Origin: an uncultured Gammaproteobacteria bacterium
GTDB taxonomy: Bacteria > Pseudomonadota > Gammaproteobacteria > Xanthomonadales > SZUA-36
Assembly: GCA_963801195.1 (NCBI GenBank)
Contig: CAWDDX010000007.1
Coordinates: forward strand, 1,129,695 to 1,193,694
Length of the DNA stretch: 64,000 bases
Direction of reading: 5' to 3'
Both the position numbers and the translations under genes were made by a program. The notes under the pieces are model-generated. The model worked only from the letters and a program-made list of their open reading frames with translations. It was not told the origin of the DNA and searched no databases. Below are positions 33,353 to 61,548 of the stretch, piece after piece; position 1 is the first letter of the stretch, and each line of letters starts with the position of its first letter.

Positions 33353-33363
33353 AGGCCGAGTCC

Positions 33364-33933: not shown

Positions 33934-33969
33934 ACCTGCGGGTTTCCGGAATGTTCAGGAGCAATATTT

Positions 33970-37955: not shown

Positions 37956-37991
37956 TCGCAAGCGCGTTATGCAAACATCATATTTGATGGT

Positions 37992-39880: not shown

Positions 39881-40119
39881 GTAGATGTACCTTTCAGCTT
39901 GTTGGCTGATGAATTGAAAGATTGCACGACCCGCTGCAGCAGCGGGCCAAGGCATTGTAACCAAATATGCTGCAGAACATTGTCACACTGCTGCAGATGC
40001 ACCCGTGCGTGGGTCTTATCCTGGTTTAACAGGAAGTTTCTGGCAGCATGGTACACTCAATGTTCCCGTTTCACATGAGCTGGCGCATGTGCCCACTATC
40101 ATTCTGCAAGGAGTATAAA

Positions 40120-43715: not shown

Positions 43716-44210
43716 TCAATGACTGATCCAGCGTGAATAATCCTTACCCGTACTGATGATGTTATGCGGCAGGTCTTCCATCAGTTTGCAGAAAACATCA
43801 CCGTGCACGTGGATCAGGTTTTTGTGGTCGCCCGCTTCGATATAAATCTCGGAGGCGTTGGTCAGTTGTTCATCCCAGATGACATCCAGACCATAGGCAT
43901 TGCTCAGTGCGGGTACAGCGCCCTTGTTGCAGTCGTGGAAAAGTTCCGGCAGTTCGTTTTCCGGTGCGATCCTGAGCTTGCGGCCCAGGCTTTCGTTGAC
44001 CCATTCCATATCGAGACGATTGGTGGACGGTAATACGCTGACCACATAACCTTTGGCGTCTTCCAGCACCACGGCCTTGGCCAACTGGTGTCCGGGAATA
44101 TGGGCGGAATGTGCCGACTCGAGAGCAGTTGCGGAAGGGTTGTGTTTGACCACGTCATAGTGAACGTTATGGTCTTCAAGATAGCATTTCAATGTTGTTG
44201 CGATAGCCAT
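43716..44210 (-). CDS. YbaK/EbsC-like aminoacyl-tRNA deacylase-domain protein
   Basis: 164 aa. The pattern HPSATALESAHSAHIPGHQLAKAVVLEDAKGYVVSVLP resembles the YbaK editing-domain fold. This is a by-eye assignment only. Confidence 0.45.
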   Translation of the reverse strand: MAIATTLKCYLEDHNVHYDVVKHNPSATALESAHSAHIPGHQLAKAVVLEDAKGYVVSVLPSTNRLDMEWVNESLGRKLRIAPENELPELFHDCNKGAVPALSNAYGLDVIWDEQLTNASEIYIEAGDHKNLIHVHGDVFCKLMEDLPHNIISTGKDYSRWISH

Positions 44211-44546
44211 GGCTTCCTCCTGTAAAACATTGAGAGAAACCGTGCTTGGCGGCAGATGTCGCTAGTCACGCTTCAGGCACTCTTAACTGCACCTGACTCA
44301 GTCATTATAAGCCAGCGGATCGGTTATGCTACAAAAATCGCGCCAGGCGCCACTCGTATTACGTGACTAAGAGTTATGGGTAAACCTGAATACTTTGGAC
44401 CATGGCCTTACTCCGGCCTGTCATGTAGCGTTGTGCCGCCAGTGACCCGCAGAGACGGCCTTGGTCACCGTGGAGACTCGACGTACAATAGTGCGTTACA
44501 CACCCCGGAACGTGCCAGGAAATGATGCCAACAAGGAAATTTATAC

Positions 44547-45008
44547 ATGAACCACAATGCAAAACGATGGATCCAACTGGGTTTGTGCACACTGATTTTA
44601 GCGTCCGCGGGATGTCAGAACAATGAAATGCATCAAACTGGAAAGGACGATAGCGCTGACCACGGTACACGTGAAATGAATGAGATTAGCGTACATACAG
44701 TTCCCGCAGACATTTCAGCTGATCAGCAGATCAATGATGCCATCACGGACCTGGCGGCACGTATTGGCGTTACAAAGGACGCCGTCGCGGTCAAGCAGGC
44801 CCGCTCAGTGCAGTGGGGTTCCGGCGCGATGGGCTGCCCCAAGCCGGGTATGAACTATACCCAGGCCCTGGTTCCAGGCATGCAACTGCTGCTGGAAGTG
44901 AACGGCACGATTTATCACTATCATGGCGGTGCCGGTAAGCACCTGTTTCTCTGTCCCTCAGAACGTGTCAAGGCACCGGCGTACGGACAGGGTTTGGAAG
45001 TGATGTAA
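44547..45008 (+). CDS. hypothetical lipoprotein
   Basis: 153 aa with lipobox LASAGC. Confidence 0.5.
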   Translation: MNHNAKRWIQLGLCTLILASAGCQNNEMHQTGKDDSADHGTREMNEISVHTVPADISADQQINDAITDLAARIGVTKDAVAVKQARSVQWGSGAMGCPKPGMNYTQALVPGMQLLLEVNGTIYHYHGGAGKHLFLCPSERVKAPAYGQGLEVM

Positions 45009-45036
45009 GCGAAGCAACTGTCACTGCAACACGTTT

Positions 45037-45070
45037 AAAAAAAGGAGCAGGGATTTCTCCCTGCTCCTTC
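45037..45070 (-). terminator. rho-independent terminator (T run on the minus strand, serves the subtilase gene)
   Basis: ggagcaggga-tttc-tccctgctcc perfect 10-bp stem (45044..45067), flanked by an A7 run on the plus strand. Confidence 0.8.
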
Positions 45071-45126
45071 GATCACTGCAGATTGTGCATCCGCATTCAG
45101 ATCATTCTACCCACCAATATCAACCA

Positions 45127-48100: not shown

Positions 48101-48546
48101 TGAAGTTTGCGGATTTCATCTTTCCAGACATGTACAACGTCAGGATTTTTCTTCAGCTTCTCAGCATCCGCTGCCGTCATACGTGCCGCAAAGCCGTTCA
48201 AGGCATAGCGGTAGTTGTAAACTTTTTCAGCACCGACACTGCGGACCACCTGGTTCTGCTTCTTTTCCAGGAAAGACGCATACTTCTTTACGGCAGCACT
48301 GTTGGGATTTAGTTTTTTACCCTTGCCAGGTTTGGTTGCCTGGTATCCCTTGATATCGCCATCATAGGCAATGACCGGGCTGGCCTGCATCTGGACGATA
48401 TAAATGTTGGATGTGGCCGACTGACTTGCTGCTGGTCTTTCCAGCAAATTACCGTTCTCACGACTGACTTTCAAATCAGCCTGAGCTGTCGCGAGACCGG
48501 TCAGACCGATCACAGTCGACAACAATAGTTTCTTAGCTAGTGACAT
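45127..48546 (-). CDS. secreted S8 subtilisin-family serine protease with PA domain and C-terminal repeat domains
   Basis: Catalytic D (GIVDTGIW), H (HGDHTAST) and S (GTSMASPHVAG). PA-domain insert (GKIALVSRGVCSF). DUF11-like segment (TLSYELVVTNENLNGPVTVTDVLPAGTSFVSGS). The signal peptide starts at MSLAKKLLL; the track ORF extends to 48597. Confidence 0.9.
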   Translation of the reverse strand: MSLAKKLLLSTVIGLTGLATAQADLKVSRENGNLLERPAASQSATSNIYIVQMQASPVIAYDGDIKGYQATKPGKGKKLNPNSAAVKKYASFLEKKQNQVVRSVGAEKVYNYRYALNGFAARMTAADAEKLKKNPDVVHVWKDEIRKLQTDTSPTYIGLTEGGQAWSKGLTGEDVVIGIVDTGIWPEHPSFADVKTPKKGNKGPDIAYGPIDDFTPSGCDFGNTAANPADAPFSCNNKLLAARCYNSGFSSGPDASNPCGGDGADTAPWEFQSGRDADGHGDHTASTAGGNNGVPAYINGVFQGNISGVAPRARLATYKVCWDGPNPNVTTDDGCASSDSAAAIDQAVADGVDVINFSIGGSSNSFASPDDLAFLFAADAGVWVAASAGNSGPDAGTVGTPSGVPWLTATGATNDDGVFYANVQVNSPGSIAGSYDGVEGAGEVSFQDTGPITADVQNASDILACDPIDPMPGKIALVSRGVCSFTIKYNNAAAAGAVAIIVYTDDRPVTTMSAPGTSIPGVMVSTDDGLTMAGETGVNVTVGLVPASNRIASFSSRGPNNGMPDVIKPDLSAPGVKILAAVSPWGAGGEEFANYNGTSMASPHVAGSFALLKQAHPDWTPAIARSALMTTARNGLKKSFGDDPADPFDVGAGEILPSNAVDPGLAYDVGFLDYLAALCGEPAQADIVDSESCDFLDSEGFSFDPSDLNLASIGIGSLVETQTITRTVTAVYNNNGSKNFTVSVDAPPGIDVSVSPSSFKLRKGDSMTYEVTFNITGDTVMGEWAFGSLTWADDDGNYSVRSPIAVRPVAATNEGVFTKTVDASNATSGDTLSYELVVTNENLNGPVTVTDVLPAGTSFVSGSETEVVDNGLTSSPWSYDAASNSLSWTGELFAGEMDVSQDPGGSVPGGYLPLASLGVPPLSSGCNGDCDDGGYWYNVPAFTYNGVTYTDTLFSVNGTIEAGSASGVFSSYNNQDLPNPLTPNNILAPFWRDLNQSAGGEMYLAVLNLGCGTATAYEWEAVPLYGSTDTVTMQVWIGNDGGCAEGLIHYVYGQMDNTADGGTVGAENAGGTIGDTYFYNGVGTAPVEGDELLVQTLPGGTATLGFQVTTDCSEDLIVNEGDLSNGEVSEQAIAVTSCQ

Positions 48547-49147
48547 AGTATATATGCTCCTTTTAAGACGACGAAGAGACTGATTGTCTTTATCCAATTT
48601 ATATGGAAAAACATTCAGTTATTAATGATTTTCATTAGGTTTTGGGTCACCAATTTCACAACTCGGTTTAAAGCAACCCTTACGCCAAACGAAATAGTCA
48701 ACAGAATTCAATCGATGGATGGCAAAGTCAAAACGTCAGACCAGAAACCATGGATTGAAATTGTTTTACTCCCTTTTCATGAATGAAAATATTCACGGCG
48801 AAATTTAAGGCTAGACCTAAAACACCACCATGTCAATTTGAAAGCAAGGACCAGCTGGATCAAAATTGTTGGTTCAAAAGATAAACAGACAACTAACTCT
48901 TTTTTTTAGTCATCTTTATTAGTCAGTTGCAGAAATTTTCTTACAATTTTTCTAGACTACTGAGATTATCGACTTCCGTGGAAGAAAATTCGGACCCAAG
49001 AACCAAATCAAACTCAATTGGCTGGTTTTCCAGAAATATAATCTGGCAAACCGTCCTGGTATCGCAAACGAGACCATCAATCTACGTTGCAGAGATCGCT
49101 TTCATTCAGGAAGTGTCAGAATCATTGAAAACGATGTTGCTCACAAA

Positions 49148-49453
49148 CTAAACCCCGGTAAAAGCGGTAACATTACTTGCAAGAAGATTACCACCGTACA
49201 AGTGCGGGTAAACTTCGCCGGAAACGGAGGTCTCCCACGTCAAACTTTCGATGAACGCCGGACCTGAAAACTCTGCGATATACAGTGGGCGAATTCCTGC
49301 GAAAAATCTTTCAACCACCTCGCCGACCTGTTCCCTGGTAGACAGGTGGATAAACCCGTCACGAAGGTCATCGGACGAACCGCTGAACTGGCCCGAATCC
49401 TGGAAGTTCCGCCATTCGGTTTCGGTGAAGATTTTGTAAACCTTGCTGGCCAT
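49148..49453 (-). CDS. DUF952-family protein
   Basis: KIFTETEWRNF...DGFIHLSTREQV...VYPHLYG matches the DUF952 pattern. The start is taken at MASKVYK. Confidence 0.65.
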   Translation of the reverse strand: MASKVYKIFTETEWRNFQDSGQFSGSSDDLRDGFIHLSTREQVGEVVERFFAGIRPLYIAEFSGPAFIESLTWETSVSGEVYPHLYGGNLLASNVTAFTGV

Positions 49454-49460
49454 TTTCGGC

Positions 49461-51050
49461 CTAACCGCCATTGTCTTTATCCAGCTTTGTTCTATCAGGA
49501 GAAATTTCATCGTCGGGCGCCGGCGGTTCCGCAGCCGCGCCGGTTGAACCGTTTACACCCTGGGCGTTTAAAAGGTCCTGGATATTGAGCGTGCCCTCAG
49601 GCGGCGGGTTGCTGCCTGCTTTTCCTTCCGCGGCTTCGCCGTTTTCCGTGGCTTCTCCTGTCAGGTATTCAAGCGCGTTCTGGGAAGCACCGGCCGTACT
49701 TTCTTCTCCGGTTGGTTCAGACAGGGCAGGGGATGTTTCGACGGGTGGGGTGCTTGACGCGGGCTTCCGGGCCGTTTCAGTCTGTTGTCCGTCCCGCGTC
49801 TGTCCTTCGTCCTGCTCGCCCTTCTGTCCGTCGATTTTGCTCTCTGCCTGCTGGTCGCCCTGGTCACCGGCTTGATCACCGTCCTGTGCCATCTCCTGAC
49901 CCTTGGCCTGAGCTGTCTCCTGTCCTTCGGTCTGGTTGTCGGATTCACCTTCGGCTTGGCCGTCACTCTTTGCACCGGCCTGACCTGCATTTTGACCAGC
50001 TTGTTGACCAGCAGCCAGAGGTTTACCATTCGTTGCGGAAGATGAACTGCTGTTTTCACCCGCACTCCCGGATTGAGCGGCAGTTCCTTTCAGGAATTCC
50101 AGAGCGTTTTGAGCGGTGCCGGCCTCGCTGGTTGACGTATCCGCAGCACTATTTGAAGCCCCACCGGCCTCACCGCTGCTTTGTTCCGCACCAGCTTGCC
50201 GGCCCGTCTGGGCAGGGGACTGCCCCCGGTCACCGGAAAGTGCAGATGTTCCCGCCTGTTCGCCATTACCGGCAGGGGGCCCGGCATTTTCTCCCGCGGC
50301 CCCGTCGCCGCCTTTGCCAAGCCCTTGCAGAAACTCCATTGCATTTTGTGACACGCCTGAAGTGCTTTTGGCGCTTGGATCATTTGCACCTGGCGAATAG
50401 GTGCCGGCAGTATCGGCCTGGCCCGAATTTTCGTCCTGGCTGTTCCGCTGACCCTGGCTACCTTCGTTCTCCTGTCCGCTTTCGCCGTCGGGCATCAAAC
50501 CGCCGCCGGTATTGTTGCCGGTACCATTTTCTGTACCCTTGGTCGCGCGGGATCCGGCCGAGTTTTCGTAAATCTGGGCCTCACGCTGGTTGTAGCTGTC
50601 GACCAGTTCGCCCCAGGCTTCCAACTCCTGCTTTTGCAGCGAAGGGTCCTTGCGGGCGGCTACGCTGGGCACATAGGGATATTCGGCGTCTTCATCGCCG
50701 GGTTGCCACGGGTCGCCCTGCACGATGATTTCCCGCAGTTCATTGCGCAGATGCTTTTGTGATTCTTCCGGCAGTTTTTCAAGCTTGTGCAGACCTGACT
50801 CGGGTTTGAATGCGGTTTCCGGGATGATACCCCGTTGCTGCTTGGCATCCTTCAGTTCCATGAACTGGCGGTAGTTGTCCTCGTTAATTTCGACCTCCTG
50901 GCTGGAAGGTGCTTCCGCTTCTTCCACCGCGGCTTTTTCGGCCGCGTCAGCAGGGGATGGTGCCGGTTGCGCTTCCTGCGCAAAAACTGACGGTGCAAAT
51001 TGCAGCACAAGGATGTTCAAAATGGCCGTCAGCGCTATCGGTTTTTTCAT
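49461..51050 (-). CDS. secreted acidic low-complexity protein with three QNA[LM]E[FY]L motifs
   Basis: 529 aa. Signal peptide ending SVFAQEA. A Gly/Gln/Glu/Ala-rich body. Starts 18 nt downstream of the kinase gene. Confidence 0.7.
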   Translation of the reverse strand: MKKPIALTAILNILVLQFAPSVFAQEAQPAPSPADAAEKAAVEEAEAPSSQEVEINEDNYRQFMELKDAKQQRGIIPETAFKPESGLHKLEKLPEESQKHLRNELREIIVQGDPWQPGDEDAEYPYVPSVAARKDPSLQKQELEAWGELVDSYNQREAQIYENSAGSRATKGTENGTGNNTGGGLMPDGESGQENEGSQGQRNSQDENSGQADTAGTYSPGANDPSAKSTSGVSQNAMEFLQGLGKGGDGAAGENAGPPAGNGEQAGTSALSGDRGQSPAQTGRQAGAEQSSGEAGGASNSAADTSTSEAGTAQNALEFLKGTAAQSGSAGENSSSSSATNGKPLAAGQQAGQNAGQAGAKSDGQAEGESDNQTEGQETAQAKGQEMAQDGDQAGDQGDQQAESKIDGQKGEQDEGQTRDGQQTETARKPASSTPPVETSPALSEPTGEESTAGASQNALEYLTGEATENGEAAEGKAGSNPPPEGTLNIQDLLNAQGVNGSTGAAAEPPAPDDEISPDRTKLDKDNGG

Positions 51051-51068: not shown

Positions 51069-53504
51069 TTACTCGTTGATTTCACGTGCCACCCGGAAAC
51101 CGGTAAAGTCATTACGATCGCCATTTTTCAGGTTGAAGCGCGCCGGCAGCCTGATTTCTTTTGAGCCGGTGATCCATGAACCCCCACGGGTGATGTGTGA
51201 ACTGCAGATACCACGCCCCCAGGCGCTGCCGTCCACGGGCGCATCGACGTAGGACAGGTTCATGCAATCGGCGGTCCATTCCGAGACATTGCCGATGGTG
51301 TCGTACAAACCAAACGCGTTGGCCCTGAATGTACCCACCGGGGTGGTGCCCAATGCCGTTTGGTCACGGCACTGTTCGTGCTGCCACTTGAAACCGGTTT
51401 CAGCCCCGGCGACGTTGCCGTACTCGCAGACGATCGCGGGGTGTCCGCCGGGCCAATCGCTTTCCTGACCGGCCCTTGCGACGTATTCCCACTCGCTCTC
51501 ACTTGGCAGACGGTAGCTTTGACCGGTTTTCTCACTCAGCCAGTGTACGTATTCCTCAGCGTCATTCCACGAGACCATGATCACCGGCCGGCTGCCCCTT
51601 CCCCAGCCATTGTCACCCGGCTGTGCAGTACAGCCTTTATCGTTGAAACACCTGTCCCACTCGGCCATCGTTATCTCGTAAACACTGACGGCGAACGGTT
51701 TGCCGATGGTCACCAGCCTGCGGGGTTTTTCCATGCCGAGCGCCAGCGGTGAGTCCTCCGCCGATCCCTGCCAGAAGGCAGCCGAAGGTATCACCATCAT
51801 CGTGGGGCAGTCACTGCAATCCTTGAATGTCTTGCCCGGGCGCAGGGTCAGGTCATCGATATGCTGCAGTGCGGAGGCGATATTCACGCCCTTGGGAAAA
51901 GCGTCGATGTAGGCCTGGAAGGCCTCCTTGTTATTTAGCTTCAACGCGGTCTGGAAAGCCATGTCGTCTTCGGACTGGTCCTTGAGCAGGCGGCGTATAC
52001 GTGTCGCTTCTTCGATGTGCAGTCCGGCGGGCCATTCGCTGATGTAGCGGTCGAACGACTTCACCGTACGTTCACTGTTTGCGTTTTCCCAGGCCAGGTT
52101 GTCCAGTCTTTCGCGTTCCAGCCTTTCCCTTTCCTTTTTGGCCTCAGCTTGTTGGATGGCCTCGATACGCTGCAGCGCCTCGGCCTGGTGAATGCCGTCG
52201 GGGAAGACCTCGAGGTAGTCTTCATAGGCGGGTACGCGGTCCTCGGCAGACAGTGTTTTCCAGCTGTTTTCGTCCAGTATGTCCAGTTGTGTTTCGGCCT
52301 GGTCGCGGTAGATGGATTCGGGGAAATCGCTGATGAAACGCCGGTAGCCGAGCACCGTATCGGCTTTCAGTGCGCCTTGCCAGCGCTCCAGTTCCTGCGA
52401 TGATGGCTCCCGTGCGCGTTCCGTCGGTGCCACCGACGGCGATGACTCATCTGGTCCCGGCGTGCCGGCGGTCGTTGTTGGCTGCGGTGATTCACCGGTT
52501 AGCAGGTATATCCCCACGGCGGTCATGGTCAGCAGGAAAACGCCCAGAAGTATCATGGGCAACCATTCCCTGCCTTCCTTTGCATACGCATCCGTTTTCC
52601 CGGCAACGACCACCGAGCGGTGCCAGTCGAGGCTTTTAAACGATTTTTTCCATATCCCGACATCCCTGGGGCGCTCAAACCATGGCACTTTCAAGCCCAG
52701 GTCCACCGCGTCTGTCAATCCGCCATACAGACCGGTGGGCGCGAGTTCGGAAAATGCCGTCAATGGATCTGTTTCACCGATCGACAGCGCTTCCTGACGT
52801 ATCACTGCCGGGGTCGGGATCTTGCCGGTCACACAGCGGTACAGCGTGGCTGACAGGCCGTAAATATCGGTCCATGGACCAATCGGATCATCCGCATCCG
52901 ATTGCTCGGGAGCGGCATATCCTTCGCTGCCCAGTCTCGGTGTTTTCCCGGACGCTGCAGCCACACCGAAATCCAGCAATACGGGATCGCCTTGCTCCAT
53001 CATGTAGATGTTGCCGGGTTTGATATCCTGGTGAACCACACCCGCTTTGTGCATGTATTCGAGCGCGTCCATCAGCGGCAGCATCAGGGATTTTGCTTCT
53101 TCTCGATTGAAGGCGCCGTGGGATTCGATCAGCTGATGCAGTGCCTGTCCCTTGTAATAGGGCATCAGGAAATAGGCCGTACCATTGGCCTCAAAGTATC
53201 TTAAAACCTTGACAATATTGGGGTGATCGAGTGCGGCAACGATACGTGCTTCATGCAAAAAAAGTTTCAGACCCTGTGCAAAGGCCGGCGACGCTGCCGG
53301 GTCATTCGGAATGACTTTGCCGTCCTCGCCCCTGGTTACCAGTTTGGCGGGCAGGTACTCCTTGAGCGCAAACCGTGTGCCGATCGCAGGGTCGGTCACC
53401 ATGTAGGTGATACCGGTCGCGCCAACACCGAGGATGGCATTGATCTGCAAGTCGCCGATATGGGATCCGGGCTGAAGCCCTGATGACTGCACGGTCATGC
53501 CCAT
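51069..53504 (-). CDS. transmembrane Ser/Thr protein kinase with periplasmic repeats and C-terminal FGE/SUMF1-like domain
   Basis: Kinase motifs LGVGATGITY, ALKEY, HQDIKPGN, DFG, APE. One TM helix (MILLGVFLLTMTAVGIYLL). Four ~25-aa repeats. FGE-sulfatase pattern (RLPSESEWEYVARAG, GLYDTIGNVSEWT, RGGSW). Confidence 0.85.
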   Translation of the reverse strand: MGMTVQSSGLQPGSHIGDLQINAILGVGATGITYMVTDPAIGTRFALKEYLPAKLVTRGEDGKVIPNDPAASPAFAQGLKLFLHEARIVAALDHPNIVKVLRYFEANGTAYFLMPYYKGQALHQLIESHGAFNREEAKSLMLPLMDALEYMHKAGVVHQDIKPGNIYMMEQGDPVLLDFGVAAASGKTPRLGSEGYAAPEQSDADDPIGPWTDIYGLSATLYRCVTGKIPTPAVIRQEALSIGETDPLTAFSELAPTGLYGGLTDAVDLGLKVPWFERPRDVGIWKKSFKSLDWHRSVVVAGKTDAYAKEGREWLPMILLGVFLLTMTAVGIYLLTGESPQPTTTAGTPGPDESSPSVAPTERAREPSSQELERWQGALKADTVLGYRRFISDFPESIYRDQAETQLDILDENSWKTLSAEDRVPAYEDYLEVFPDGIHQAEALQRIEAIQQAEAKKERERLERERLDNLAWENANSERTVKSFDRYISEWPAGLHIEEATRIRRLLKDQSEDDMAFQTALKLNNKEAFQAYIDAFPKGVNIASALQHIDDLTLRPGKTFKDCSDCPTMMVIPSAAFWQGSAEDSPLALGMEKPRRLVTIGKPFAVSVYEITMAEWDRCFNDKGCTAQPGDNGWGRGSRPVIMVSWNDAEEYVHWLSEKTGQSYRLPSESEWEYVARAGQESDWPGGHPAIVCEYGNVAGAETGFKWQHEQCRDQTALGTTPVGTFRANAFGLYDTIGNVSEWTADCMNLSYVDAPVDGSAWGRGICSSHITRGGSWITGSKEIRLPARFNLKNGDRNDFTGFRVAREINE

Positions 53505-55018
53505 TCCGCCTCTTGTTTGACCACGTGGATCGTCACTTGCACATCACCCAGGAATATTTCGTCATCGGTTCCAATATACATGATCTCACCGGGCAGACAG
53601 GGCACATCACCGATGAAGCTGCCGTTTCGGGAGCCCAGGTCGGAAAAGGTAATCCATTCGCCCTCGGATTGAATGCGGGCATGGCGGCGGCTGATGGCCG
53701 CGTGTTCAATGGCAATATCCGCGTCACCCCTGCCAATCACGATATCTATCTGATCGATATCGATAAAACAGAAGCGCTTGAAAGACCTGTCGGAATCGAG
53801 CAACCCCTCGACGATGAGAACACCGTTGCATCCGTCGGGCCGTGTGCCCCACGCCGGCAACTCCAGGTCATAGACAGGCGCCGAGCGGGGCTTGAACGCG
53901 CTGCTTTCAGACCCGGTTTCCAAGGGCGCCGTCACCGGTTCGTCGGACGCCGGCTGAACGGTTGCGGCGGGTTCGGTCGAGGTCGTCGGCGGTGAGGGCG
54001 TGGTGCTGAGCCGGAATAAGAAAATACCTTTCCAGATGAAAACTCCGAGGACGATGAGTCCGAGCAGCGGCAGCCAGGCAGGAACATTGTGCCAGAACGG
54101 TGATGGTTCCTTTGTATTGCTTAGCGTTACCTGGCTTGCTGGCGTAATGGGGGCATCCCGTGTCGGGGTCCCGGTCGGTTCGTTGACAGTTGGTTCAGTT
54201 ACAGAGGGTTCTTCAAGGGCTCTCTCCTGTTTAGCCTCCACGACCGGTTCATGCGACTTTTCAGCTTCAAGCGGCGTATCTTTGTCGCTTGCGGTTTTGG
54301 CCGCTGATGATCCTGTGCCTGCAACGGGTTGCTCGCAGATGGCTTTGGGCACACTGATCTGCAGTACGTCAAGGTCACGGAGCAGGTCTTCTCCAAACAG
54401 GACTGAAGCGATTTTGTCACCATCCAGGCTTTGCGGTCCGCGGGCCAGGCTGGCGCCTGCGAGGTAACCGCAACTATCGAGAATCGCTCCGGTGACGTAG
54501 GGCAGGGGTGTTTCGGCTGAAATTGAAAGCTGACCGGTTTGTCCATCACGCAATACTTTCACCGGCAGCTTGAGGGGTTGCGCGCCTTTTGCGATGTACT
54601 CCGCCGGCGGGAACGCTTCCAGGTGCAGTGTTCCGCCAGTCTCCAGCGCATTGGCGGACAGCTTGATGCCCGGCCGCTTGAGACCCTTGACCGACAGGAA
54701 TGCCATATCGCCGGTGCCGGTATCGTCAACGATCTGGGCGGGACGGCCATTGCTGAGAATGTCGGCGCCGCCATCGAGCACGATCATTTCGCCGTCTTCA
54801 GCGGCAAATTCTGCAGGTACCATCACGATCCCGTCGTCCGAAACCACGATACCCGTGGTCGGCTTGACCAGCGTTTTCGAAACCAGTTTGAGGACCAGGA
54901 CCACCGATGGAGAAATCTGGACGGTTTGCTGAGCCGTGGCGGCCTGGGTCTGGGCCAGGGCGATGAGCAACAGCACAAGCCGGCTCAGAAACCCTTCACT
55001 CAAACGCCCGTCAAGCAT
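53495..55018 (-). CDS. bitopic protein: periplasmic trypsin-like (probably inactive) domain, TM helix, cytoplasmic FHA domain
   Basis: The signal peptide starts at MLDGRL. TM helix WLPLLGLIVLGVFIWKGIFLF. C-terminal FHA signature GRGDADIAIEHAAISRRHARI...GSRNGSFI. The track ORF extends to 55063. Confidence 0.7.
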   Translation of the reverse strand: MLDGRLSEGFLSRLVLLLIALAQTQAATAQQTVQISPSVVLVLKLVSKTLVKPTTGIVVSDDGIVMVPAEFAAEDGEMIVLDGGADILSNGRPAQIVDDTGTGDMAFLSVKGLKRPGIKLSANALETGGTLHLEAFPPAEYIAKGAQPLKLPVKVLRDGQTGQLSISAETPLPYVTGAILDSCGYLAGASLARGPQSLDGDKIASVLFGEDLLRDLDVLQISVPKAICEQPVAGTGSSAAKTASDKDTPLEAEKSHEPVVEAKQERALEEPSVTEPTVNEPTGTPTRDAPITPASQVTLSNTKEPSPFWHNVPAWLPLLGLIVLGVFIWKGIFLFRLSTTPSPPTTSTEPAATVQPASDEPVTAPLETGSESSAFKPRSAPVYDLELPAWGTRPDGCNGVLIVEGLLDSDRSFKRFCFIDIDQIDIVIGRGDADIAIEHAAISRRHARIQSEGEWITFSDLGSRNGSFIGDVPCLPGEIMYIGTDDEIFLGDVQVTIHVVKQEAEWA

Positions 55019-55023
55019 CTGTA

Positions 55024-55770
55024 TCAAGGTGAATAAAGCCGGTTGATCAGGTTGTCCAGGCAATATTGCCCGGAGCGATTGAGCGTGTTTTCTTCCCTGC
55101 CCTGGATCAGGTTTTGCAGGAATACCAGTATGGCCGCCATCACCAAAGCCAATAACGTAGTGCTGAAAGCGACACCGAGGCGTTCCGTGACCTGGTACAG
55201 CATTTCAGGACTCTCGACGTTGGCCCGGTCACCTGCGTAATTCAGCGCCAGCATGATGCCGATGACGGTGCCGATAAAACCGAGCGAAGGAATCAGCCAG
55301 GTGATGTAGCGGATCATGTTATAACGCAGATCAAGCTCGTGCAGAAAGAGCTCGAGACTCGAGTTCAACAGTGCATTGGTCTGATCCACTGACTGGCCCA
55401 GATTGAAATTTAGCACACAGCGCTCGATCAAACGTGGCAGAAAGCAGATGTTCCTGTATTTGCTGCTGTGAACTTTCTGATAGATAGGCGTCAGGTCGTC
55501 ACCGGGCCGAAGTACGGTTTCATCATCGAGCGGCAGGTAGTTGCGGTCAAACTGGCTTTCGTCAAGACGACCGGCGCGCCAGCGCAGGGTCAATTCACCC
55601 AGACCGAAGAAGAAAGCGACCCAAATGATGTTTTGCACCGTGAGCGGCCATGAGGCCCGCTTGATATCCAGCATGATGGCGGCCGCGCTTGGCGGAAGTA
55701 TTCTCGCCAGCAGGGCGATCACCAGGACGGACGTAACCAGGCTGATTAATAATGTGATTTGTCGAGTCAT
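55024..55770 (-). CDS. MotA/TolQ/ExbB-family proton-channel protein
   Basis: 248 aa. The family core is IPSLGFIGTVIGIMLAL...GVAFSTTLLALVMAAILVFL. Confidence 0.8.
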   Translation of the reverse strand: MTRQITLLISLVTSVLVIALLARILPPSAAAIMLDIKRASWPLTVQNIIWVAFFFGLGELTLRWRAGRLDESQFDRNYLPLDDETVLRPGDDLTPIYQKVHSSKYRNICFLPRLIERCVLNFNLGQSVDQTNALLNSSLELFLHELDLRYNMIRYITWLIPSLGFIGTVIGIMLALNYAGDRANVESPEMLYQVTERLGVAFSTTLLALVMAAILVFLQNLIQGREENTLNRSGQYCLDNLINRLYSP

Positions 55771-55791
55771 TCTGTGTCTGAGCCTTGAAGG

Positions 55792-56226
55792 TTAAGGATT
55801 GACGGACCGGTCATCTTCGATTTTACCGGTTAAGGGGTTTCGCCGGGGTTTGTTCATTAAAGGCCCGTGGTCCGGATTTCCCGAGGATGGCCTGGCGGTG
55901 GTTTTTCCGTACCTGAGATGAAAGTGTCTCGCCTCGAGCCGAGTATTCGTTCGCTTGCCGAAGATCGCTGTGAGGGTCTCCAGCGGCACTTCAACGTCGC
56001 CGAAGCGGATACGGTCGCCGATACACAAGGTGATCTTTTTCACACGGATCCAGCGTTCGTTGCGATTTAAATAGGTGCCATTGCTGGAACCCGTGTCATG
56101 TATCGTCACGAGACCGTCGCCGGCTACTTCGAGACGGGCGTGCAGACGGGAAAGCGTCGCGTGGTCGAGGACGAGGTCGCAGGCAGGGTCCCGTCCGCAT
56201 GTCTTGATTTCCGTTCCAGTACTCAC
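55792..56226 (-). CDS. stand-alone FHA-domain protein
   Basis: 144 aa. CGRDPACDLVLDHATLSRLHARL...GSSNGTYLN (canonical G-R, S-x-x-H, N-G residues) and a basic C-terminal tail. Confidence 0.85.
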   Translation of the reverse strand: MSTGTEIKTCGRDPACDLVLDHATLSRLHARLEVAGDGLVTIHDTGSSNGTYLNRNERWIRVKKITLCIGDRIRFGDVEVPLETLTAIFGKRTNTRLEARHFHLRYGKTTARPSSGNPDHGPLMNKPRRNPLTGKIEDDRSVNP

Positions 56227-56365
56227 AGGAGCTCTTTGTCCTTTGTCATCCTATTCGTTTGAGTGCGGCAGGCCATCTGTTGAAAGGCCCCTCGCCCGGC
56301 ATTCCGGAGAAATTTGTAATCAACCCGGCAGTATACTGCATTCAATTCCATGAATCGTAAATCGC

Positions 56366-57304
56366 TCATTGTGCCAGTGCCAGGAAGCCGCCGGAGTTGG
56401 CGCGCGCCAGGTTCTCCATGAATTCGACTGTTCCCTTGTATTTGAAATAGTCGCCAATGGTCACCGCATGGATTTCAACACCCCTGGTATTTGACATGAC
56501 GATATCCTGGATCAGCGCCCTGGGCGGCAGACCGCCGTTGTAGGCCGGGTTGGGCAGGCCGTCACTGAGCAGGATTACCGCTTCCGCAGGTGTCTTCAGG
56601 GCCTCGGCAAACGCATCCCGGAGCGAAGACGAGCCTTCGAATTTACCGGCCAACTGACGTGCGAAACGCTGGGCCTGCGCACGGTTTGCGGGGTTCATCG
56701 CAACCAGTCCTCCATTTTCCGGAAAACGATGATAACGGGGGCCTGAATCCAGTTGCTGAAAACCGAGAATACCAAACTCGTATCCCGGTTTGAGTGAGTC
56801 GAGTGCACGCATCACGGTTTTGGCAACCAATGCCTCGTGGTCAGCGAGATACTTGTTCATATCGACGAGCAGCAGAATGCGGGTCTTGTCGGTTTTCAAA
56901 CCGAGGAAACGAAACGTCACCAGGTTGCTGCCCTGCTTTTCTTCCGTCTCTACGGGGCTCGGCGGGGGAGGTGGCGGCTTGTCGTTGCGCGCCTGCAGTT
57001 TGGCGCGGACGGCCTCCAGTTCACTCGACATGATCTCCTGTTCCGCCTGCAGTTCCATCTCGCGGCTCTGCGCCTTACTGAGCGCATCGTTCATGCTGAC
57101 AATACCCTTCTCGGTATCGTTCATGATCGCTTCGGTCTCCCCTTTCAACGATTCGATATATTCGAGGTGCCCTTCCAGCCTGACTTCTTTTTGGTAATCC
57201 GGCATCAGGATAATCGTGATGATGATGAACGCGCCCATTGCCGAGGCGAACAGGTCGATGGCCGAGAGCGAAAAAACACCCATGTGCCGCAGGCGTGATT
57301 TCAT
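56366..57304 (-). CDS. MotB/ExbD-like TM anchor + coiled coil + vWA domain (degenerate MIDAS)
   Basis: 312 aa. TM helix with Asp (FSLSAIDLFASAMGAFIIITIIL), a heptad-rich segment, a poly-Pro linker, and a vWA core (ILLLVDMNKY, LLSDGLPN). Paralog of the adjacent gene. Confidence 0.7.
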   Translation of the reverse strand: MKSRLRHMGVFSLSAIDLFASAMGAFIIITIILMPDYQKEVRLEGHLEYIESLKGETEAIMNDTEKGIVSMNDALSKAQSREMELQAEQEIMSSELEAVRAKLQARNDKPPPPPPSPVETEEKQGSNLVTFRFLGLKTDKTRILLLVDMNKYLADHEALVAKTVMRALDSLKPGYEFGILGFQQLDSGPRYHRFPENGGLVAMNPANRAQAQRFARQLAGKFEGSSSLRDAFAEALKTPAEAVILLSDGLPNPAYNGGLPPRALIQDIVMSNTRGVEIHAVTIGDYFKYKGTVEFMENLARANSGGFLALAQ

Positions 57305-58230
57305 TTGGAAACACCCACGAAATCGCCGCCGTTCAGGCGGGCGAGCGTTTGCATGAAAAGAACCAGGTTACGGTTGTGCGTGTAGTCGCCAATCGCCACG
57401 GTGTGAATTTCAGTCCGCCGGAACTGGTTGAGCTGGGTGATGTTATCGATAATGAAACCGGGCGGGCTGTTGGGTTCGCCGTCGCTCATAAGGATAATGG
57501 CGCTGGCCGGGTATTCCAACGCTGCCTGTAGGGCAAAATGCGTCGGTGTCGAACCGACGAATTTACGCACCAGCGACTGTGTAAAGTCTGCCGCCAGCCC
57601 CAGGTTTTCCCTGGTGGCGGGAAGCAGGCGGTTACCGGTGGGGAAGCTCCAAAGCACCGGTTGCGGGTTACCGTGATAGCCGAGAATGGCGAACTGGTTG
57701 GATTCATCCAGGGGTTTGAGAATGGCGAGCACAGAGTCGATCATTTCCCGTTCGTACTGCAGCATACTACCTGACATGTCCACGACGATGACGAAGGACT
57801 TGGCCTCGGTGGCGAGACCCAGGATTGAGAATTCGACACCGTGGGTCAGAGCCTTGGGTTCCGGTTCGGGATTGATGACCTCGACCGGTTCGGTGACCGG
57901 CGTTGGCAGCGCGGCCAACTGGTTCTTGACGTCCATCAACTGCTTGCGCAGGCGCGAGACCTGCTGTTCCTGCCCCTGGTTGGTCTCGGTCAGTTCATCC
58001 AGTTCACTTTGCAGTTCCTGCTGGCGGGCTTTCAGGTCTTCCAACTCCCCGGCAGCCAGGCGGCGCTGCTCCATGATCGCCTGTGTCCTGGCAAAGGAGT
58101 CATCGGGGCCGGCATGACGGTAATAGGGGAATAGCAGCATTACCAGTAGAATAAACGCGCCCAGGGCCGAGGCGAACAAGTCGATGGCCGAGGTCGAAAA
58201 AACAGCGGTGTCTCTATCCGGGATTCTCAA
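57301..58230 (-). CDS. MotB/ExbD-like TM anchor + coiled coil + vWA domain (intact MIDAS-like DxSxS)
   Basis: 309 aa. TM helix with Asp (FSTSAIDLFASALGAFILLVMLL), a coiled-coil-like segment, a Pro-rich linker, and a vWA core (FVIVVDMSGSM, LMSDGEPN). 4-nt overlap with its paralog. Confidence 0.7.
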   Translation of the reverse strand: MRIPDRDTAVFSTSAIDLFASALGAFILLVMLLFPYYRHAGPDDSFARTQAIMEQRRLAAGELEDLKARQQELQSELDELTETNQGQEQQVSRLRKQLMDVKNQLAALPTPVTEPVEVINPEPEPKALTHGVEFSILGLATEAKSFVIVVDMSGSMLQYEREMIDSVLAILKPLDESNQFAILGYHGNPQPVLWSFPTGNRLLPATRENLGLAADFTQSLVRKFVGSTPTHFALQAALEYPASAIILMSDGEPNSPPGFIIDNITQLNQFRRTEIHTVAIGDYTHNRNLVLFMQTLARLNGGDFVGVSK

Positions 58231-58443
58231 GGATATTTTTACTTATGATTGAAGTATCAAGTTGACATGAAAGATTGCGTTTTTGTTCAATGCCGGTTCA
58301 AGTTCTGGACGATTTTGCATGTGATATATGATACCCGCACTGCGCTCAAGCTACGTTAAAATGTTGTTTAATGCTGTTTCCCGGAGGTGTCCCGGGACCT
58401 GTCCGGGTCACGGTGACCTGATTGAGGATGACGAACGGTCAAC

Positions 58444-61400
58444 ATGGAATTATATTTGATCAACCGCCGACTGGTAAAATTGCTGCTGACCCTGGCCATC
58501 CTGGTAAGCGGAGCGGCCATTCCCGCGTTATCGGGCGCGGTGGCCGCAGAACAGTCAAAGATGCAGGAATATTTTGTTCAGCAGGCGGTCAATGAGGACC
58601 TGTTAATAACGATCAACGCTTTTGAAGCCGAATTCGAGTCCAGAGTATCGGGTCCAAACGGCGAGCTTTTACTCTTGTCCGGCATCACCGGCAGCCGTAT
58701 CGTGCCGGTTTTTCAATACATCTATGCGCCTAAAAACAATCGTCAGATCGATATAGAAGTCACTTCCGGTGTGAACACAGGACGCACCGAGTTTGGTATC
58801 GAGCTGACCCGCTTGAAACCCTGGGACTCAAGGAGCAATTCCATCTCCCGGGCGTACAAATTGCTGTCGTTTGGAACGGAGCTTGATGGCAATGCAAGCC
58901 AGGTGAACTGGACGATAAAGATCGACAGCCTGACGAATGCCGGAAAGCTGTTTGAGCAATATGGTATGCAGGAAATGCGATTGTGGGCCAATTACCTGGC
59001 CGCGCACCACGTCCTGTTTTATCTGCACGACCACAGTATCGCCTACAGCATGACCCGTGACATCCTGTCCGAACTCAAGGGTACACGTCTGCAGAAAATA
59101 GAGCTCGCGACCCTGCAACTTCAAGGCATGGCGCTTATGGGTCTGAGGAAATCGGGTTCATTGAACATAAGCAAGGGAGATTCCGATCCGGTGCAGGCAG
59201 TGCTTTCACGTACGGCTGAACTCGCGCGATCGATGGGTTATGAGTATGAACTCGCGCGCGCGCTGTATGACAGCGGCCTGGAGTACGCCGGCCAGTCGTC
59301 CAATACGGACGCGCTCGATCAGTTCCAGCAGGCCGTGCAGATCGCTGACGGGGTCGGCAGTACAGAAATGGCGAAAGCGATTCGCGAAAGTATCGTTCAG
59401 GTACATACCGTCCTCGGAGACGCACCGGCCAGCAGCGAGGTGCTCCAGGAGATTGAATCCCAACTGGTCGAGGATGGCGGAGGTGACGAACTTGCTCTCA
59501 ATCTGTTGGCGCAGGCGCGCCTGTTGATTGGAAAGTACCGTTATCGCGAGGCCCTGAAGGTGTTGTCCGGTGCGCTTGCTTATCAAAACAACAGCGCCAT
59601 CCGCCGGCAAATCTATTTTGAACTGGCGAAAATTCTTTATGAAACCGGGCGCATGGACGATTCGCTGAAATACCTCCAGCTGGCCGGAATCAACCCCGAT
59701 TCAAGCCGGAATCGACGTGTAAATCCGGTGGTCGATGTCGGCGAAGGACTGCAAATCCTGGCCAATATCTACCGTTACAAGGGTGAATTTGAGCGCATGC
59801 AGACCACGCGGAGCGCGCAGGGACAGTACCGGCCGGCCACGGATCAATACCTGTATGACCAGGGCATGGACGCCCTCGCTACGCCCGGCGACCACCGGCA
59901 GCGCGCCGCATCGCTCTTGCGCCGGAGCTTTGAAGTTGCCGGGCCGGCCGGCCATGATGATATTGAACATCTGGCACAGCTGCACTATTGCGTATTGACA
60001 GACCCTGCAGATGGTTTGTGTTCAAATGCGGCACTCAACAGGGCTCATGAATGGCTTATTGCCGCGGCTGTGCCGAGGGTCACCTCGGAAGCCATGTATG
60101 TGTGGGTGCAACTGCTGTTACGTGATGGGAGGCGCGGTGAAGCCAACGCTGTTATGGAGGGGCTGATCGATGATATTCACGTGATGCGCTTTTCGCTGCC
60201 GGGGGTACTCGGCTCCTGGTACTGGGAGCGGCATGAACAGATTTTTGAAACCTGGCTCGGGATGCTCATCAGCGAGTCACGACAACGCGGCAGTACAGAA
60301 GGATCGGCGTCGTTGCTGGCCCTGAGCAAAATGAGGTTTATTGAAGGTACAACCGAGTCCTATGCCGGTAAGGGGGGGGAAGCTGACTCGTTGCGGACAC
60401 TCCTGGCACAACGCGCCGATCCGGGAGCGGGGCAGTCACGTCTGACCCTGAACGAAAAAATCATGCCTGGCCTGGACAAGCTGCGCGCAGATTTCCACGA
60501 ACGCTTTGCGTTCCTGTCAGACGCGGGTCTGAAAAAATACCTGCGTAGCCTGGCGGAAGACGAAACGGTAATGACCTATCATCTTGGCCCGCGCCTGGCA
60601 CAGGTGTGGATTGCAAACAAAAACGGGGTTCAGCGACGGGATATTGCCGATCCCGCGAAAGTGTATCAGGGTATTCAAACGGACCGGCTAAGCCTGGCGG
60701 ATATCGGACTGGCCGCTTTTGATGACAAAATGGATGAGCTGGGAAAACAACTGTTGCAACCGGTTGCCGATCTCCTGACAGACACGATCTATGCAATTCC
60801 GGCTGGCCCGCTGTTGGGGGTTCCGCTGGATGCACTGCGGTTCAATGGACATTACCTGGTGGAACGTCATAACGTGGTGAACCTGCTTTCCTTTCCGCAA
60901 AACGTCAACCCGGCCAGCAGTCTGCAGACGGGATTATTGCAAAGTGTCTTCCTCGCCGGCAACCCAATGGATTACGCAGGCGATTACGCGACCCGGCTTG
61001 AAACCTCGGCCGAGATCAGTGCGGTGGCGGACCTGTTTGTCGGTCCGGGACTGCAAATTGTGCAGGGGGTCGCCCTGTTACCCGATGAATTCCAGTCCGA
61101 CCACTTCAGCCAGTCAAACCTGGTGCACTTGTCGATGCCGGGCGTTATCAACCTCGAACATCCCGACCAATCGGGACTTGAGCTTTCCGAGAGTGAATAT
61201 GAGCCGGGGCGTGCCATACTGCTGTCCCCGGATATCCGTTCGCAGAACCTGGGTGCCGGGCTGGTATTCCTGAGTTCACTGAGACTGAGCGGAATTCCGC
61301 GCTCAGGTTTCAGCAGTCAACCCGGTCTCGTCGCGGACTTCATGGCGGCGGGAGCAGAGTCGGTCATCGTCAATTTATGGGCCGGTGACGCCGGCTCGAA

Positions 61401-61548
61401 TGTGACTTTCATCACCAGCTTCTACCGCTCGCTAAAGGCATCGGCCAACACCGCCGCGGCCCTGCGAAACTCAAGACTTGAATATTTGGAAAGTGGTCGT
61501 GATGACGGTAACTACGACTGGGCCGGGTACCAGCTTTATATCAAGTAA
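58444..61548 (+). CDS. secreted TPR-like repeat protein with C-terminal CHAT (caspase-like) domain, catalytic dyad apparently lost
   Basis: 1034 aa. Signal peptide (ALSGAVAAEQ) and a helical-repeat middle region. C-terminal CHAT pattern: LVHLSMPG...LVFLSSLRLSG...AGAESVIVNLWA...WAGYQLY. Confidence 0.7.
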   Translation: MELYLINRRLVKLLLTLAILVSGAAIPALSGAVAAEQSKMQEYFVQQAVNEDLLITINAFEAEFESRVSGPNGELLLLSGITGSRIVPVFQYIYAPKNNRQIDIEVTSGVNTGRTEFGIELTRLKPWDSRSNSISRAYKLLSFGTELDGNASQVNWTIKIDSLTNAGKLFEQYGMQEMRLWANYLAAHHVLFYLHDHSIAYSMTRDILSELKGTRLQKIELATLQLQGMALMGLRKSGSLNISKGDSDPVQAVLSRTAELARSMGYEYELARALYDSGLEYAGQSSNTDALDQFQQAVQIADGVGSTEMAKAIRESIVQVHTVLGDAPASSEVLQEIESQLVEDGGGDELALNLLAQARLLIGKYRYREALKVLSGALAYQNNSAIRRQIYFELAKILYETGRMDDSLKYLQLAGINPDSSRNRRVNPVVDVGEGLQILANIYRYKGEFERMQTTRSAQGQYRPATDQYLYDQGMDALATPGDHRQRAASLLRRSFEVAGPAGHDDIEHLAQLHYCVLTDPADGLCSNAALNRAHEWLIAAAVPRVTSEAMYVWVQLLLRDGRRGEANAVMEGLIDDIHVMRFSLPGVLGSWYWERHEQIFETWLGMLISESRQRGSTEGSASLLALSKMRFIEGTTESYAGKGGEADSLRTLLAQRADPGAGQSRLTLNEKIMPGLDKLRADFHERFAFLSDAGLKKYLRSLAEDETVMTYHLGPRLAQVWIANKNGVQRRDIADPAKVYQGIQTDRLSLADIGLAAFDDKMDELGKQLLQPVADLLTDTIYAIPAGPLLGVPLDALRFNGHYLVERHNVVNLLSFPQNVNPASSLQTGLLQSVFLAGNPMDYAGDYATRLETSAEISAVADLFVGPGLQIVQGVALLPDEFQSDHFSQSNLVHLSMPGVINLEHPDQSGLELSESEYEPGRAILLSPDIRSQNLGAGLVFLSSLRLSGIPRSGFSSQPGLVADFMAAGAESVIVNLWAGDAGSNVTFITSFYRSLKASANTAAALRNSRLEYLESGRDDGNYDWAGYQLYIK

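Follow-up and report, generated by a model that had tools for sequence, protein, structure and literature searches.

The 5:2 motors of the MotA/ExbB family power flagella, TonB-dependent uptake, the Tol-Pal system, gliding and the type IX secretion system (T9SS), and Zorya defence. Each new type of partner found for such a motor revealed another way in which inner-membrane energy reaches the envelope. To our knowledge, control by Ser/Thr kinases, FHA domains and PP2C phosphatases has not been demonstrated for any 5:2 motor. A stretch of 64,000 nucleotides from the metagenome-assembled genome of a marine gammaproteobacterium of the Lysobacterales (Xanthomonadales type) (contig CAWDDX010000007.1; the whole stretch is called the window) was analyzed, which contains a tightly packed minus-strand gene cluster and a divergent gene for a TPR-CHAT protein. 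The cluster encodes a MotA-like channel subunit together with two paralogous vWA proteins (vWA-A and vWA-B), each with a single transmembrane (TM) helix, a Ser/Thr kinase and two FHA proteins. It is fairly probable that these products form a proton-driven (MotA-like)5:(vWA-A/vWA-B) unit that is coupled to Thr phosphorylation in most lineages. The inner dimer of this motor would end in vWA ligand-binding heads, and the unit is genomically wired to eukaryote-like kinase/FHA/PP2C signalling.

The motor core itself is already predicted, without a name, in a 2025 study (Mol Biol Evol 2025, msaf138, PMC12204202, Fig. 4c-d). In that work, vWA proteins tethered by a TM helix co-occur tightly with tolQ homologues lacking tolR/exbD, and pairs of transpore helix (TPH)-vWA proteins are predicted to serve as the inner dimer in a TolQ-like 5:2 motor. 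AlphaFold 3 (AF3) models put the conserved helix Asp inside the Thr ring of the pentamer, and Idiomarina loihiensis served as the seed. Kinases, FHA and PP2C go unmentioned in the TPH-vWA context in the text and supplements of PMC12204202, as do the partners described below (an S1C-TM-FHA protein, an FGE-like domain, and acidic, 671-aa and 261-aa proteins). A search of open-access papers and preprints for a signalling link or an accessory set of TPH-vWA motors found no paper, which is no proof of absence. What appears to be new is the coupling to phosphorylation, together with the S1C-TM-FHA partner, the FGE-like partner and the additional conserved genes. An earlier reading of the letters of the window (the sequence-only reading) had taken the entire system as a candidate undescribed one; this cannot be upheld for the motor core and appears to stand for the signalling link and the accessory partners.

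The motor core and its gene string

The genes of the system in the window are as follows.

57301-58230, minus strand: vWA-A, 309 aa
56366-57304, minus strand: vWA-B, 312 aa, with a 4-nt overlap with vWA-A
55792-56226, minus strand: small FHA protein, 144 aa, cytoplasmic
55024-55770, minus strand: MotA-like channel subunit, 248 aa, four predicted TM helices
53495-55018, minus strand: S1C-like-TM-FHA protein, bitopic
51069-53504, minus strand: kinase-FGE protein, 811 aa, with a 10-nt overlap with the TM-FHA gene
49461-51050, minus strand: acidic secreted protein, 529 aa, after an 18-nt gap behind the kinase-FGE gene
58444-61548, plus strand: TPR-CHAT protein, 1034 aa, divergent from vWA-A
58231-58443: divergent spacer between vWA-A and TPR-CHAT, 213 bp
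40864-42879, plus strand: 671-aa predicted lipoprotein, a further conserved partner gene
42876-43661, plus strand: 261-aa secreted helical protein, a further conserved partner gene

A check of the open reading frames (ORFs) reproduced all coordinates, strands, overlaps and gaps of the sequence-only reading, and Pfam agreed with its VWA, two FHA, MotA_ExbB, Pkinase plus FGE, CHAT plus TPR and DUF952 domains. Its gene list was incomplete, as the two conserved partner genes on the plus strand had been missed. The ATG at 55018 suits orthologue alignments better as the start of the TM-FHA gene than the upstream TTG at 55063. Promoter-like matches in a promoter and terminator scan of 48.5-61.8 kb were no commoner than in shuffled sequences and thus at chance level. 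Paralogues of the cluster proteins were not found elsewhere in the window.

The MotA-like protein (Pfam MotA_ExbB, 2.5e-13) shows 100% identity to a protein of a metagenome-assembled genome (MAG) at NCBI and 81% to the cultured Marinihelvus fidelis. It stops about 30 aa past its last TM helix. NCBIfam models of ExbB and TolQ scored it at about 20 bits, with cutoffs of 135 and 221. A profile of the subfamily was compared with solved structures and matched TolQ (5e-4), ZorA (8qyh, 1.6e-3) and MotA (6ysl, 8e-3); since the best structure matches reach only this range, the subfamily is considered a deep, separate branch. Its invariant motifs are GFIGTV, containing T168, and AFxTT, containing T204/T205. 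Alignment of 34 diverse homologues showed T168 and T205 to be unchanged, and profile alignment placed both positions on the pore-lining Thr residues of TolQ (GTVWGI/ATAIGL).

The sequence-only reading had described the MotA-like gene as lying beside genes for two vWA proteins that are paralogues of each other, each with a coiled coil and a single, Asp-bearing TM helix, and as having no ExbD, TolR or MotB neighbour, which was confirmed. Pfam detected no ExbD, TolR, MotB or OmpA domain in the cluster or its flanking genes (ORFs below 150 aa elsewhere were not all scanned). Both vWA proteins run from a short basic tail, cytoplasmic in vWA-A, through a transpore-type TM helix, a coiled coil and a Pro-rich linker to a vWA domain, which is periplasmic in vWA-A. 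The helix FS(T/L)SAIDLFASA(L/M)GAF carries Asp17 in both proteins (codons 58180-58182 in vWA-A and 57254-57256 in vWA-B) and has no His in either. The two proteins are recognizable as paralogues by phmmer (4e-37), and the Pfam VWA_3 domain was found in vWA-A (2.8e-10) and, below the cutoff, in vWA-B (1.5e-3). The metal ion-dependent adhesion site (MIDAS) is intact in vWA-A (DMSGS...TPT...SDG) and degenerate in vWA-B (DMNKY). All A-type and all B-type orthologues of the gamma- and alphaproteobacterial clades follow this split, which dates the A/B paralogy as old.

Co-localisation in related genomes

The MotA-like protein was searched against 1.84 billion representative proteins; counted at 50% identity, the matching clusters numbered 132 at E<=1e-30 and 734 at E<=1e-10. 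In a profile-guided scan in which each GTDB species was represented by a single genome, at least 593 relatives were identified, and the best 80 loci (each designated by an L number) were analyzed with 10-kb flanks. ORFs were called in these 80 loci and searched with the window proteins and with profiles of recurrent neighbours. Co-occurrence counts were restricted to the 54 loci whose flanks reach 6 kb or more on each side. Most related loci come from MAGs, and they span at least eight phyla, with members in Gamma- and Alphaproteobacteria, Latescibacterota, Acidobacteriota, Gemmatimonadota, Verrucomicrobiota, Desulfobacterota and Binatota.

A lack of co-localisation in other genomes had been named in advance by the sequence-only reading as the result that would overturn it, and strong co-localisation was observed. 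A TPH/vWA-type protein is encoded in 51 of the 54 loci, FHA in 43 of 54, a Ser/Thr kinase in 41 of 54, PP2C in 33 of 54 and an FGE-like domain in 22 of 54. Among all 80 loci, 58 have an FHA gene at most 300 nt from the MotA-like gene. Genes for FHA, TPH/vWA and PP2C proteins are 16- to 36-fold less dense at 8-10 kb from the MotA-like gene than at 0-2 kb. The cluster is more than a chance juxtaposition.

The near-universal neighbour of the MotA-like protein is an Asp-bearing helix (...SALDLFASALGAF...) on single-TM proteins that usually end in vWA. Its N-terminal motif, R-x-R-E-x-N-I-F-S-M-S-A-L-D-L-F-A-S-A-L-G-A-F, has one exception among approximately 90 neighbour proteins. A strict regular expression for the TPH was dropped because it under-counted variants, and the TPH counts given here were obtained by phmmer. 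Asp-bearing TPH proteins of approximately 195-270 aa with no detectable vWA or MIDAS are encoded in L034 (15904-16707) and in L076/L078.

Four recurring gene orders keep the same components.

Type 1, the window (L001-L009 and M. fidelis): CHAT / vWA-A, vWA-B, FHA, MotA, S1C-TM-FHA, kinase-FGE, acidic protein / 261-aa, 671-aa
Type 2, Caulobacterales/Hyphomonadaceae: 671-aa, 281-aa, vWA-A, vWA-B, MotA, repeats plus FGE, often followed by the acidic protein
Type 3, the commonest, including Idiomarina: FHA, MotA, 220-aa FHA-like, PP2C, protease-TM-FHA, one TPH protein, kinase(s)
Type 4, Rhodospirillales: kinase, FHA, MotA, vWA, FHA, vWA

A complete 10-gene cluster is present in the cultured M. fidelis. 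Orthologues share 78-90% identity in the MotA-like protein, and the FGE part is the best conserved. Searches with the MotA-like protein by tblastn gave no match in phages and a single match among 72,556 plasmids, located on a 1.3-Mb Rhizobium chromid; in view of these results there is no evidence of mobility.

Signalling proteins and exported partners

The small FHA protein (Pfam FHA, 2.4e-17) keeps the residues for binding of phosphothreonine (GR...SR.H...SNG) and has a basic disordered tail. The second FHA protein starts with a signal peptide and a periplasmic S1C trypsin-fold domain, followed by a TM helix, a disordered cytoplasmic linker and a C-terminal FHA domain (Pfam FHA, 2.9e-11). The phosphothreonine-binding residues are kept in both FHA domains of the cluster. 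The trypsin-like domain, which the sequence-only reading had already recognized, went undetected by Pfam, and an orthologue profile gave a weak DegQ match (E 0.036). That the domain is real was revealed by structure prediction alone: an AlphaFold2 model computed from 39 homologues reached a confidence score (pLDDT) of approximately 90 over residues 39-230, and this domain matched MarP, DegS, HtrA and the S1C-like domain of RsgI9 in Foldseek (E 1.7e-7, TM-score 0.6-0.69). The catalytic His is missing and Thr replaces Ser, as judged by comparison with an active paralogue in L034, in which the full triad is present (Trypsin_2, 7.9e-22). The S1C-like domain is accordingly predicted to be inactive. 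The otherwise disordered linker contains DEPxT363APL366, and T363 and L366 are invariant in the 39 homologues. FHA domains prefer pTxx(I/L), and DEPxTAPL, which fits this preference, may be a docking site.

Another protease-TM-FHA type was observed in Idiomarina-type loci (L047 17211-19775; L039-L041, L056). Here a secreted thermolysin-like M4 peptidase domain, in which HExxH is intact, is combined with a TM helix and two FHA domains, an architecture that parallels S1C-TM-FHA.

The kinase-FGE protein comprises a cytoplasmic kinase (Pkinase, 9.7e-35) with intact catalytic motifs (K, HQD, DFG, APE), a TM helix, four helical repeats of approximately 35 aa and a periplasmic domain (FGE-sulfatase, 6.6e-48) that resembles PvdO and the formylglycine-generating enzyme (FGE). 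Matches of this domain were PvdO (5hha, 2.5e-43), PorK (1.8e-12) and, in NCBIfam, GldK (1.7e-22). The GGSYMC segment of human FGE (2afy) aligns with GGSWIT, so that Thr occupies the position of Cys336, and the C-terminal 45 residues contain no Cys at all (the human pair is C336/C341). In Caulobacterales loci, the repeats and the FGE part are kept without the kinase domain. Kinase ectodomains differ by locus and are FGE-like, a right-handed beta-helix, or a peptidoglycan-binding domain with two FGE domains; this variation fits a sensor role. Diversification of the FGE domain by a diversity-generating retroelement was considered and ruled out, because orthologues conserve this domain better than any other part.

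Arrays of 3-8 paralogous transmembrane Ser/Thr kinases flank the MotA-like/TPH system in L048, L063, L033 and L055, and three kinase-FGE genes stand in a row in L055. These arrays suggest a diversified sensor repertoire that feeds one motor.

The acidic secreted protein is of low complexity (16% D+E; 63% G/S/A/Q/T/N/P) and has no Pfam match. It contains three SQNA(L/M)E(F/Y)L repeats, the fuller motif being (S/T)xxG(V/T/A)(S/A)QNA(L/M)E(F/Y)L; the L001 and L009 orthologues have one copy of this type of motif. In L001-L009, the gene behind kinase-FGE encodes an orthologue (E 1e-27 to 7e-58), and weak counterparts occur in alphaproteobacterial loci. One might speculate that the motif is a docking peptide, for example for the MIDAS of vWA-A.

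The 671-aa protein carries a lipobox (VSGC), a Gly/Ala-rich hydrophobic segment at approximately residues 434-475 and C-terminal MORN-like beta-hairpin repeats. Neither this protein nor the 261-aa protein, whose gene is translationally coupled to it, has a Pfam match. The AlphaFold2 model of the 671-aa protein had a mean pLDDT of 40, with only the C-terminal repeats usable, and gave weak MORN matches in Foldseek. Homologues of the 671-aa protein adjoin the system in L001, L005, L007 and L009 (E down to 4e-291) and occur in eight Caulobacterales-type loci (E ~1e-105 to 1e-119) and in M. fidelis. Those of the 261-aa protein, found in L001, L005 and L009 (1e-64 to 1e-90) and in alphaproteobacterial loci (1e-5 to 1e-8), always stand beside a 671-aa homologue. 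Both genes come straight after the acidic-protein gene in M. fidelis, L001, L005 and L009.

The TPR-CHAT protein (Pfam CHAT, 1.1e-26; TPR_16, 4.2e-5) has lost the catalytic His-Cys dyad in seven of seven orthologues, with HL(S/A)MPG for HxxHG and LS(S/A/L)(L/T) for LSAC, and its alignment to the CHAT structure 8rot places Leu at the Cys position. It is present in 6 of the 80 loci, all of the closest clade, and in M. fidelis, always divergent from vWA-A. As it is confined to this clade, it is regarded as a clade-specific accessory; the sequence-only reading was right that the gene is present and divergent and went too far in counting it as a defining component. The N-terminus (window 58444-58560) reads ...INRRLVKLLLTLAILVSGAAIPALSGAVAAEQ, which is an export or anchor signal. 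As judged by eye, its twin-Arg RRLVK (NRRLVK...) resembles a twin-arginine translocation (Tat) signal, in which case the protein would possibly be exported in the folded state. The proposal that the exported modules of the system are of a binding, non-catalytic type holds for CHAT (seven orthologues), the S1C-like and FGE-like domains and the vWA-B MIDAS.

Relative to M. fidelis, L001, L005 and L009, the system is split in the window by an insertion of approximately 5.8 kb (43716-49453), which contains the following genes.

43716-44210: YbaK-like tRNA_edit gene
44547-45008: 153-aa ORF, no Pfam match
45127-48597: 1156-aa secreted S8 subtilase with I9, PA, fn3_6 and DUF11 domains
DUF952 ORF (Pfam DUF952, 3.6e-23)

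The DUF952 gene had been read as part of the system. No related locus has a counterpart, and the gene is therefore placed outside.

Further features were observed elsewhere in the window. A large aryl-polyene/xanthomonadin-like pigment cluster (21772-39964) includes an FkbO-like chorismatase, two Trp-halogenase-like flavoenzymes, an AMP-ligase, a LolA-like protein, an MMPL transporter, ketosynthases, ApeI-/ApeP-like dehydratases, a glycosyltransferase, lipid-A-type acyltransferases, a thioesterase, a ketoreductase and an O-methyltransferase. A large Lhr-type helicase is present as two ORFs approximately 385 nt apart, one with DEAD, Helicase_C and WH_Lhr domains (942-2699) and one with DEAD_assoc and WH4_Lhr domains (3085-5286); this split may reflect an assembly error, or else a frameshift or pseudogene. 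The only genes of the window related to motility are two tandem ones for T2SSE-family ATPases (PilT/PilU-like, 5734-8064), at a distance of approximately 45 kb from the cluster. Genes for tRNA-Gly(GCC) and tRNA-Cys(GCA) lie at 18882-19184 in an ORF-poor stretch of lower GC content (18.5-20.5 kb, GC 0.45-0.50).

Proposed mechanism and comparison with known systems

The observed gene content, motifs, folds and cross-phylum co-localisation are the basis for a proposed force-transducing, phosphorylation-gated mechanism. Approximately five MotA-like subunits would surround the Asp17 helices of a vWA-A/vWA-B heterodimer; we infer this 5:2 stoichiometry from the family and from the published AF3 models of homologues. 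Protons passing the Asp residues and the Thr ring would rotate or pull the vWA dimer, whose coiled-coil stalk and Pro-rich linker would carry two vWA heads, one MIDAS-competent and one degenerate, into the periplasm. The heads probably engage co-encoded exports, namely the PvdO/FGE-like ectodomain with its repeats and the acidic, 261-aa and 671-aa proteins, and the contact between head and ligand would pass force or a conformational signal on through the envelope. The transmembrane kinase would read a periplasmic cue via its variable ectodomain, and the two FHA readers (the small FHA protein, whose gene lies directly upstream of the MotA-like gene, and S1C-like-TM-FHA) would relay phosphorylation to the motor or to motor assembly, with PP2C as the likely eraser in most lineages. 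Our best guess for the output is signal-gated envelope maintenance or surveillance, not motility, and the direction of signalling and the ligands are likewise put forward as proposals. The sequence-only reading had proposed much the same mechanism and is considered largely right in this respect.

Several observations weigh against this mechanism. No PP2C gene was found in the 64-kb window, though most related systems have one, so that the phospho-switch is locally incomplete. The survey of the host covers only these 64 kb and leaves room for a canonical ExbD/TolR elsewhere in the genome. The co-occurrence counts derive from the best 80 of at least 593 loci, from crude ORF calling and from window proteins as queries. 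Many TPH proteins in other phyla have no vWA, and the transpore helix is thus joined to different periplasmic heads by lineage. Type 2 loci, which have the same twin-vWA subtype as the window, contain no kinase domain and no FHA; phosphorylation is therefore regarded as an added layer of regulation, outside the motor proper.

It is quite possible, if short of probable, that the MotA-like/TPH family constitutes a widespread and hitherto unrecognised class of 5:2 motors that are ion-driven and gated by Ser/Thr phosphorylation (at least eight phyla, at least 593 species-level genomes), and a new envelope-spanning apparatus that pulls periplasmic or outer-membrane ligands via vWA or other heads. 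A transmembrane kinase with a variable periplasmic sensor, together with FHA adaptors and a PP2C, would turn this proton-powered apparatus on and off. If so, its output would be neither flagellar rotation, Ton/Tol transport, gliding nor Zorya-type defence, and envelope-damage or invader surveillance and outer-membrane remodelling would be candidate outputs. A general regulatory principle is likely, because the linkage spans Proteobacteria to Acidobacteriota, Latescibacterota and Verrucomicrobiota. As the cultured M. fidelis has the complete cluster, the hypothesis is directly testable.

A Zorya-like surveillance of phages or other invaders would explain the cluster differently, with a motor that senses envelope perturbation, inactive domains that serve as decoys or binders, and a kinase/FHA pair that triggers the response. 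Weak similarity to ZorA (PADLOC ZorA2, 1e-4; 8qyh, as given above), a patchy phyletic distribution and arrays of 4-8 kinase paralogues beside the motor in some phyla (L048, L063) are consistent with it. The same is true for the periplasmic pseudo-enzymes, as Kaur et al. 2020 (PMC7159879) discuss such modules as typical of conflict systems; MotA and ExbB are not mentioned there. However, PADLOC on nine proteins returned generic kinase matches and the weak ZorA2 match only, leaving the vWA, FHA, TM-FHA and CHAT proteins without a match. A known defence system was rejected on these results, and the defence role suggested by the sequence-only reading gained no positive support. A nuclease, toxin or other effector is not present, the long ZorA tail and a ZorB-type peptidoglycan-binding domain are missing, and the family was absent from phages and confined to one chromid among the plasmids. 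The sequences are conserved and not diversifying, as seen in the MotA-like and FGE identities, and a flank is common to the window and L001. Taken together, such a defence function is unlikely. A machine for surface motility, adhesion or secretion, analogous to Agl-Glt or T9SS, is quite unlikely as well. It would fit the intact vWA MIDAS, the conserved lipoprotein partner, the GldK and PorK matches of the FGE-like domain and the small FHA protein, whose best NCBIfam match is GltG (1.1e-14), but these matches are domain-level and far under the cutoffs (GldK 80 versus 350 bits; GltG 54 versus 650), the FGE domain is much nearer PvdO than PorK, and the window contains no outer-membrane beta-barrel, secretin or other Glt/Gld/Por genes.

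The remaining explanations concern the unity of the cluster itself. The MotA-like protein might pair with a conventional ExbD, TolR or MotB encoded elsewhere, and the vWA proteins would then be unrelated membrane-anchored adhesins or regulators. The visible sequence of 64 kb, with ORFs below 150 aa outside the cluster scanned in part, leaves space for such a partner, but the Asp helix is conserved over at least eight phyla and stands beside the MotA-like gene in 51 of the 54 full loci, the cluster genes overlap or closely abut, and the published AF3 models of homologues set these helices in the pore; this pairing is very improbable. Even harder to credit is that an independent kinase/FHA module and a motor operon came to lie side by side by chance. 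The Caulobacterales-type relatives without kinase and FHA would agree with such an origin, but the linkage recurs over many phyla and in several gene orders, FHA genes abut the MotA-like gene in most loci, and gene density falls steeply with distance from it.

With the phosphorylation-coupled 5:2 motor as the preferred reading, the locus can be compared with known machines. Zorya ZorAB is alike in that a MotA/ExbB-family pentamer surrounds an inner dimer bearing Asp, without a relation to flagella, Ton or Tol; for the locus this arrangement is predicted. Unlike Zorya, the MotA-like protein of 248 aa has no long cytoplasmic ZorA tail, the vWA proteins have no ZorB peptidoglycan-binding domain, and ZorC-G effectors are absent. 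In contrast to flagellar MotAB/PomAB, the partners bear vWA and not OmpA-like domains, and there are no flagellar genes in the 64 kb. Both the ExbD/TolR partner and the SHLS-bearing TonB/TolA transducer of the Ton and Tol-Pal systems are absent from the cluster. T9SS (GldLM-PorK/N) resembles the locus at the domain level, as a 5:2-family motor with an FGE-fold periplasmic protein (PorK/GldK), and differs in GldL/M/N, which are missing here, and in the low GldK score and PvdO-like FGE domain noted above. Myxococcus Agl-Glt is likewise similar at the domain level, with a 5:2-family motor, FHA-bearing bitopic GltG/J and the vWA adhesin CglB, and unlike the locus in its other Glt components.

On the signalling side, the PpkA-PppA-Fha1 pathway of the type VI secretion system (T6SS) shares a transmembrane Ser/Thr kinase with a periplasmic sensor, one or more FHA readers, which gate an envelope machine there and would do so here, and, in 33 of 54 related loci, PP2C. 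It differs in that the window has no PP2C and no T6SS domains (TagH 30 bits versus a cutoff of 120) and that the vWA domain is found on the motor partner here and not on the kinase. The HtrA/DegS S1C proteases and RsgI9 provide precedents for an S1C fold on a membrane-anchored signalling protein (DegS, RsgI9); unlike the proteases, the TM-FHA protein has no catalytic His, Thr for Ser and no PDZ, and FHA is its cytoplasmic output. The TPR-CHAT protein departs from active ones such as Craspase in the absence of the catalytic His-Cys dyad in all seven orthologues, and the FGE-like domain departs from the formylglycine-generating enzyme in the absence of the catalytic Cys pair. The closest likeness is to the TPH-vWA/TolQ-like motors, with which the locus shares a MotA/TolQ-like gene beside vWA genes and no tolR, exbD or motB in the cluster, an N-terminal Asp helix without SHLS/His motif in both vWA proteins, a conserved Thr ring in the channel subunit (T168, T205) and a heterologous vWA pair with distinct A and B groups in the gamma- and alphaproteobacterial clades. 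The Idiomarina locus (L047) is a homologue, with 45% identity in the MotA-like protein (E 4e-66) and the same TPH motif. Compared with Idiomarina-type loci, the window lacks PP2C and the 220-aa FHA gene, and compared with the published TPH-vWA motors it represents a distinct, long coiled-coil twin-vWA subtype that it shares with Caulobacterales.

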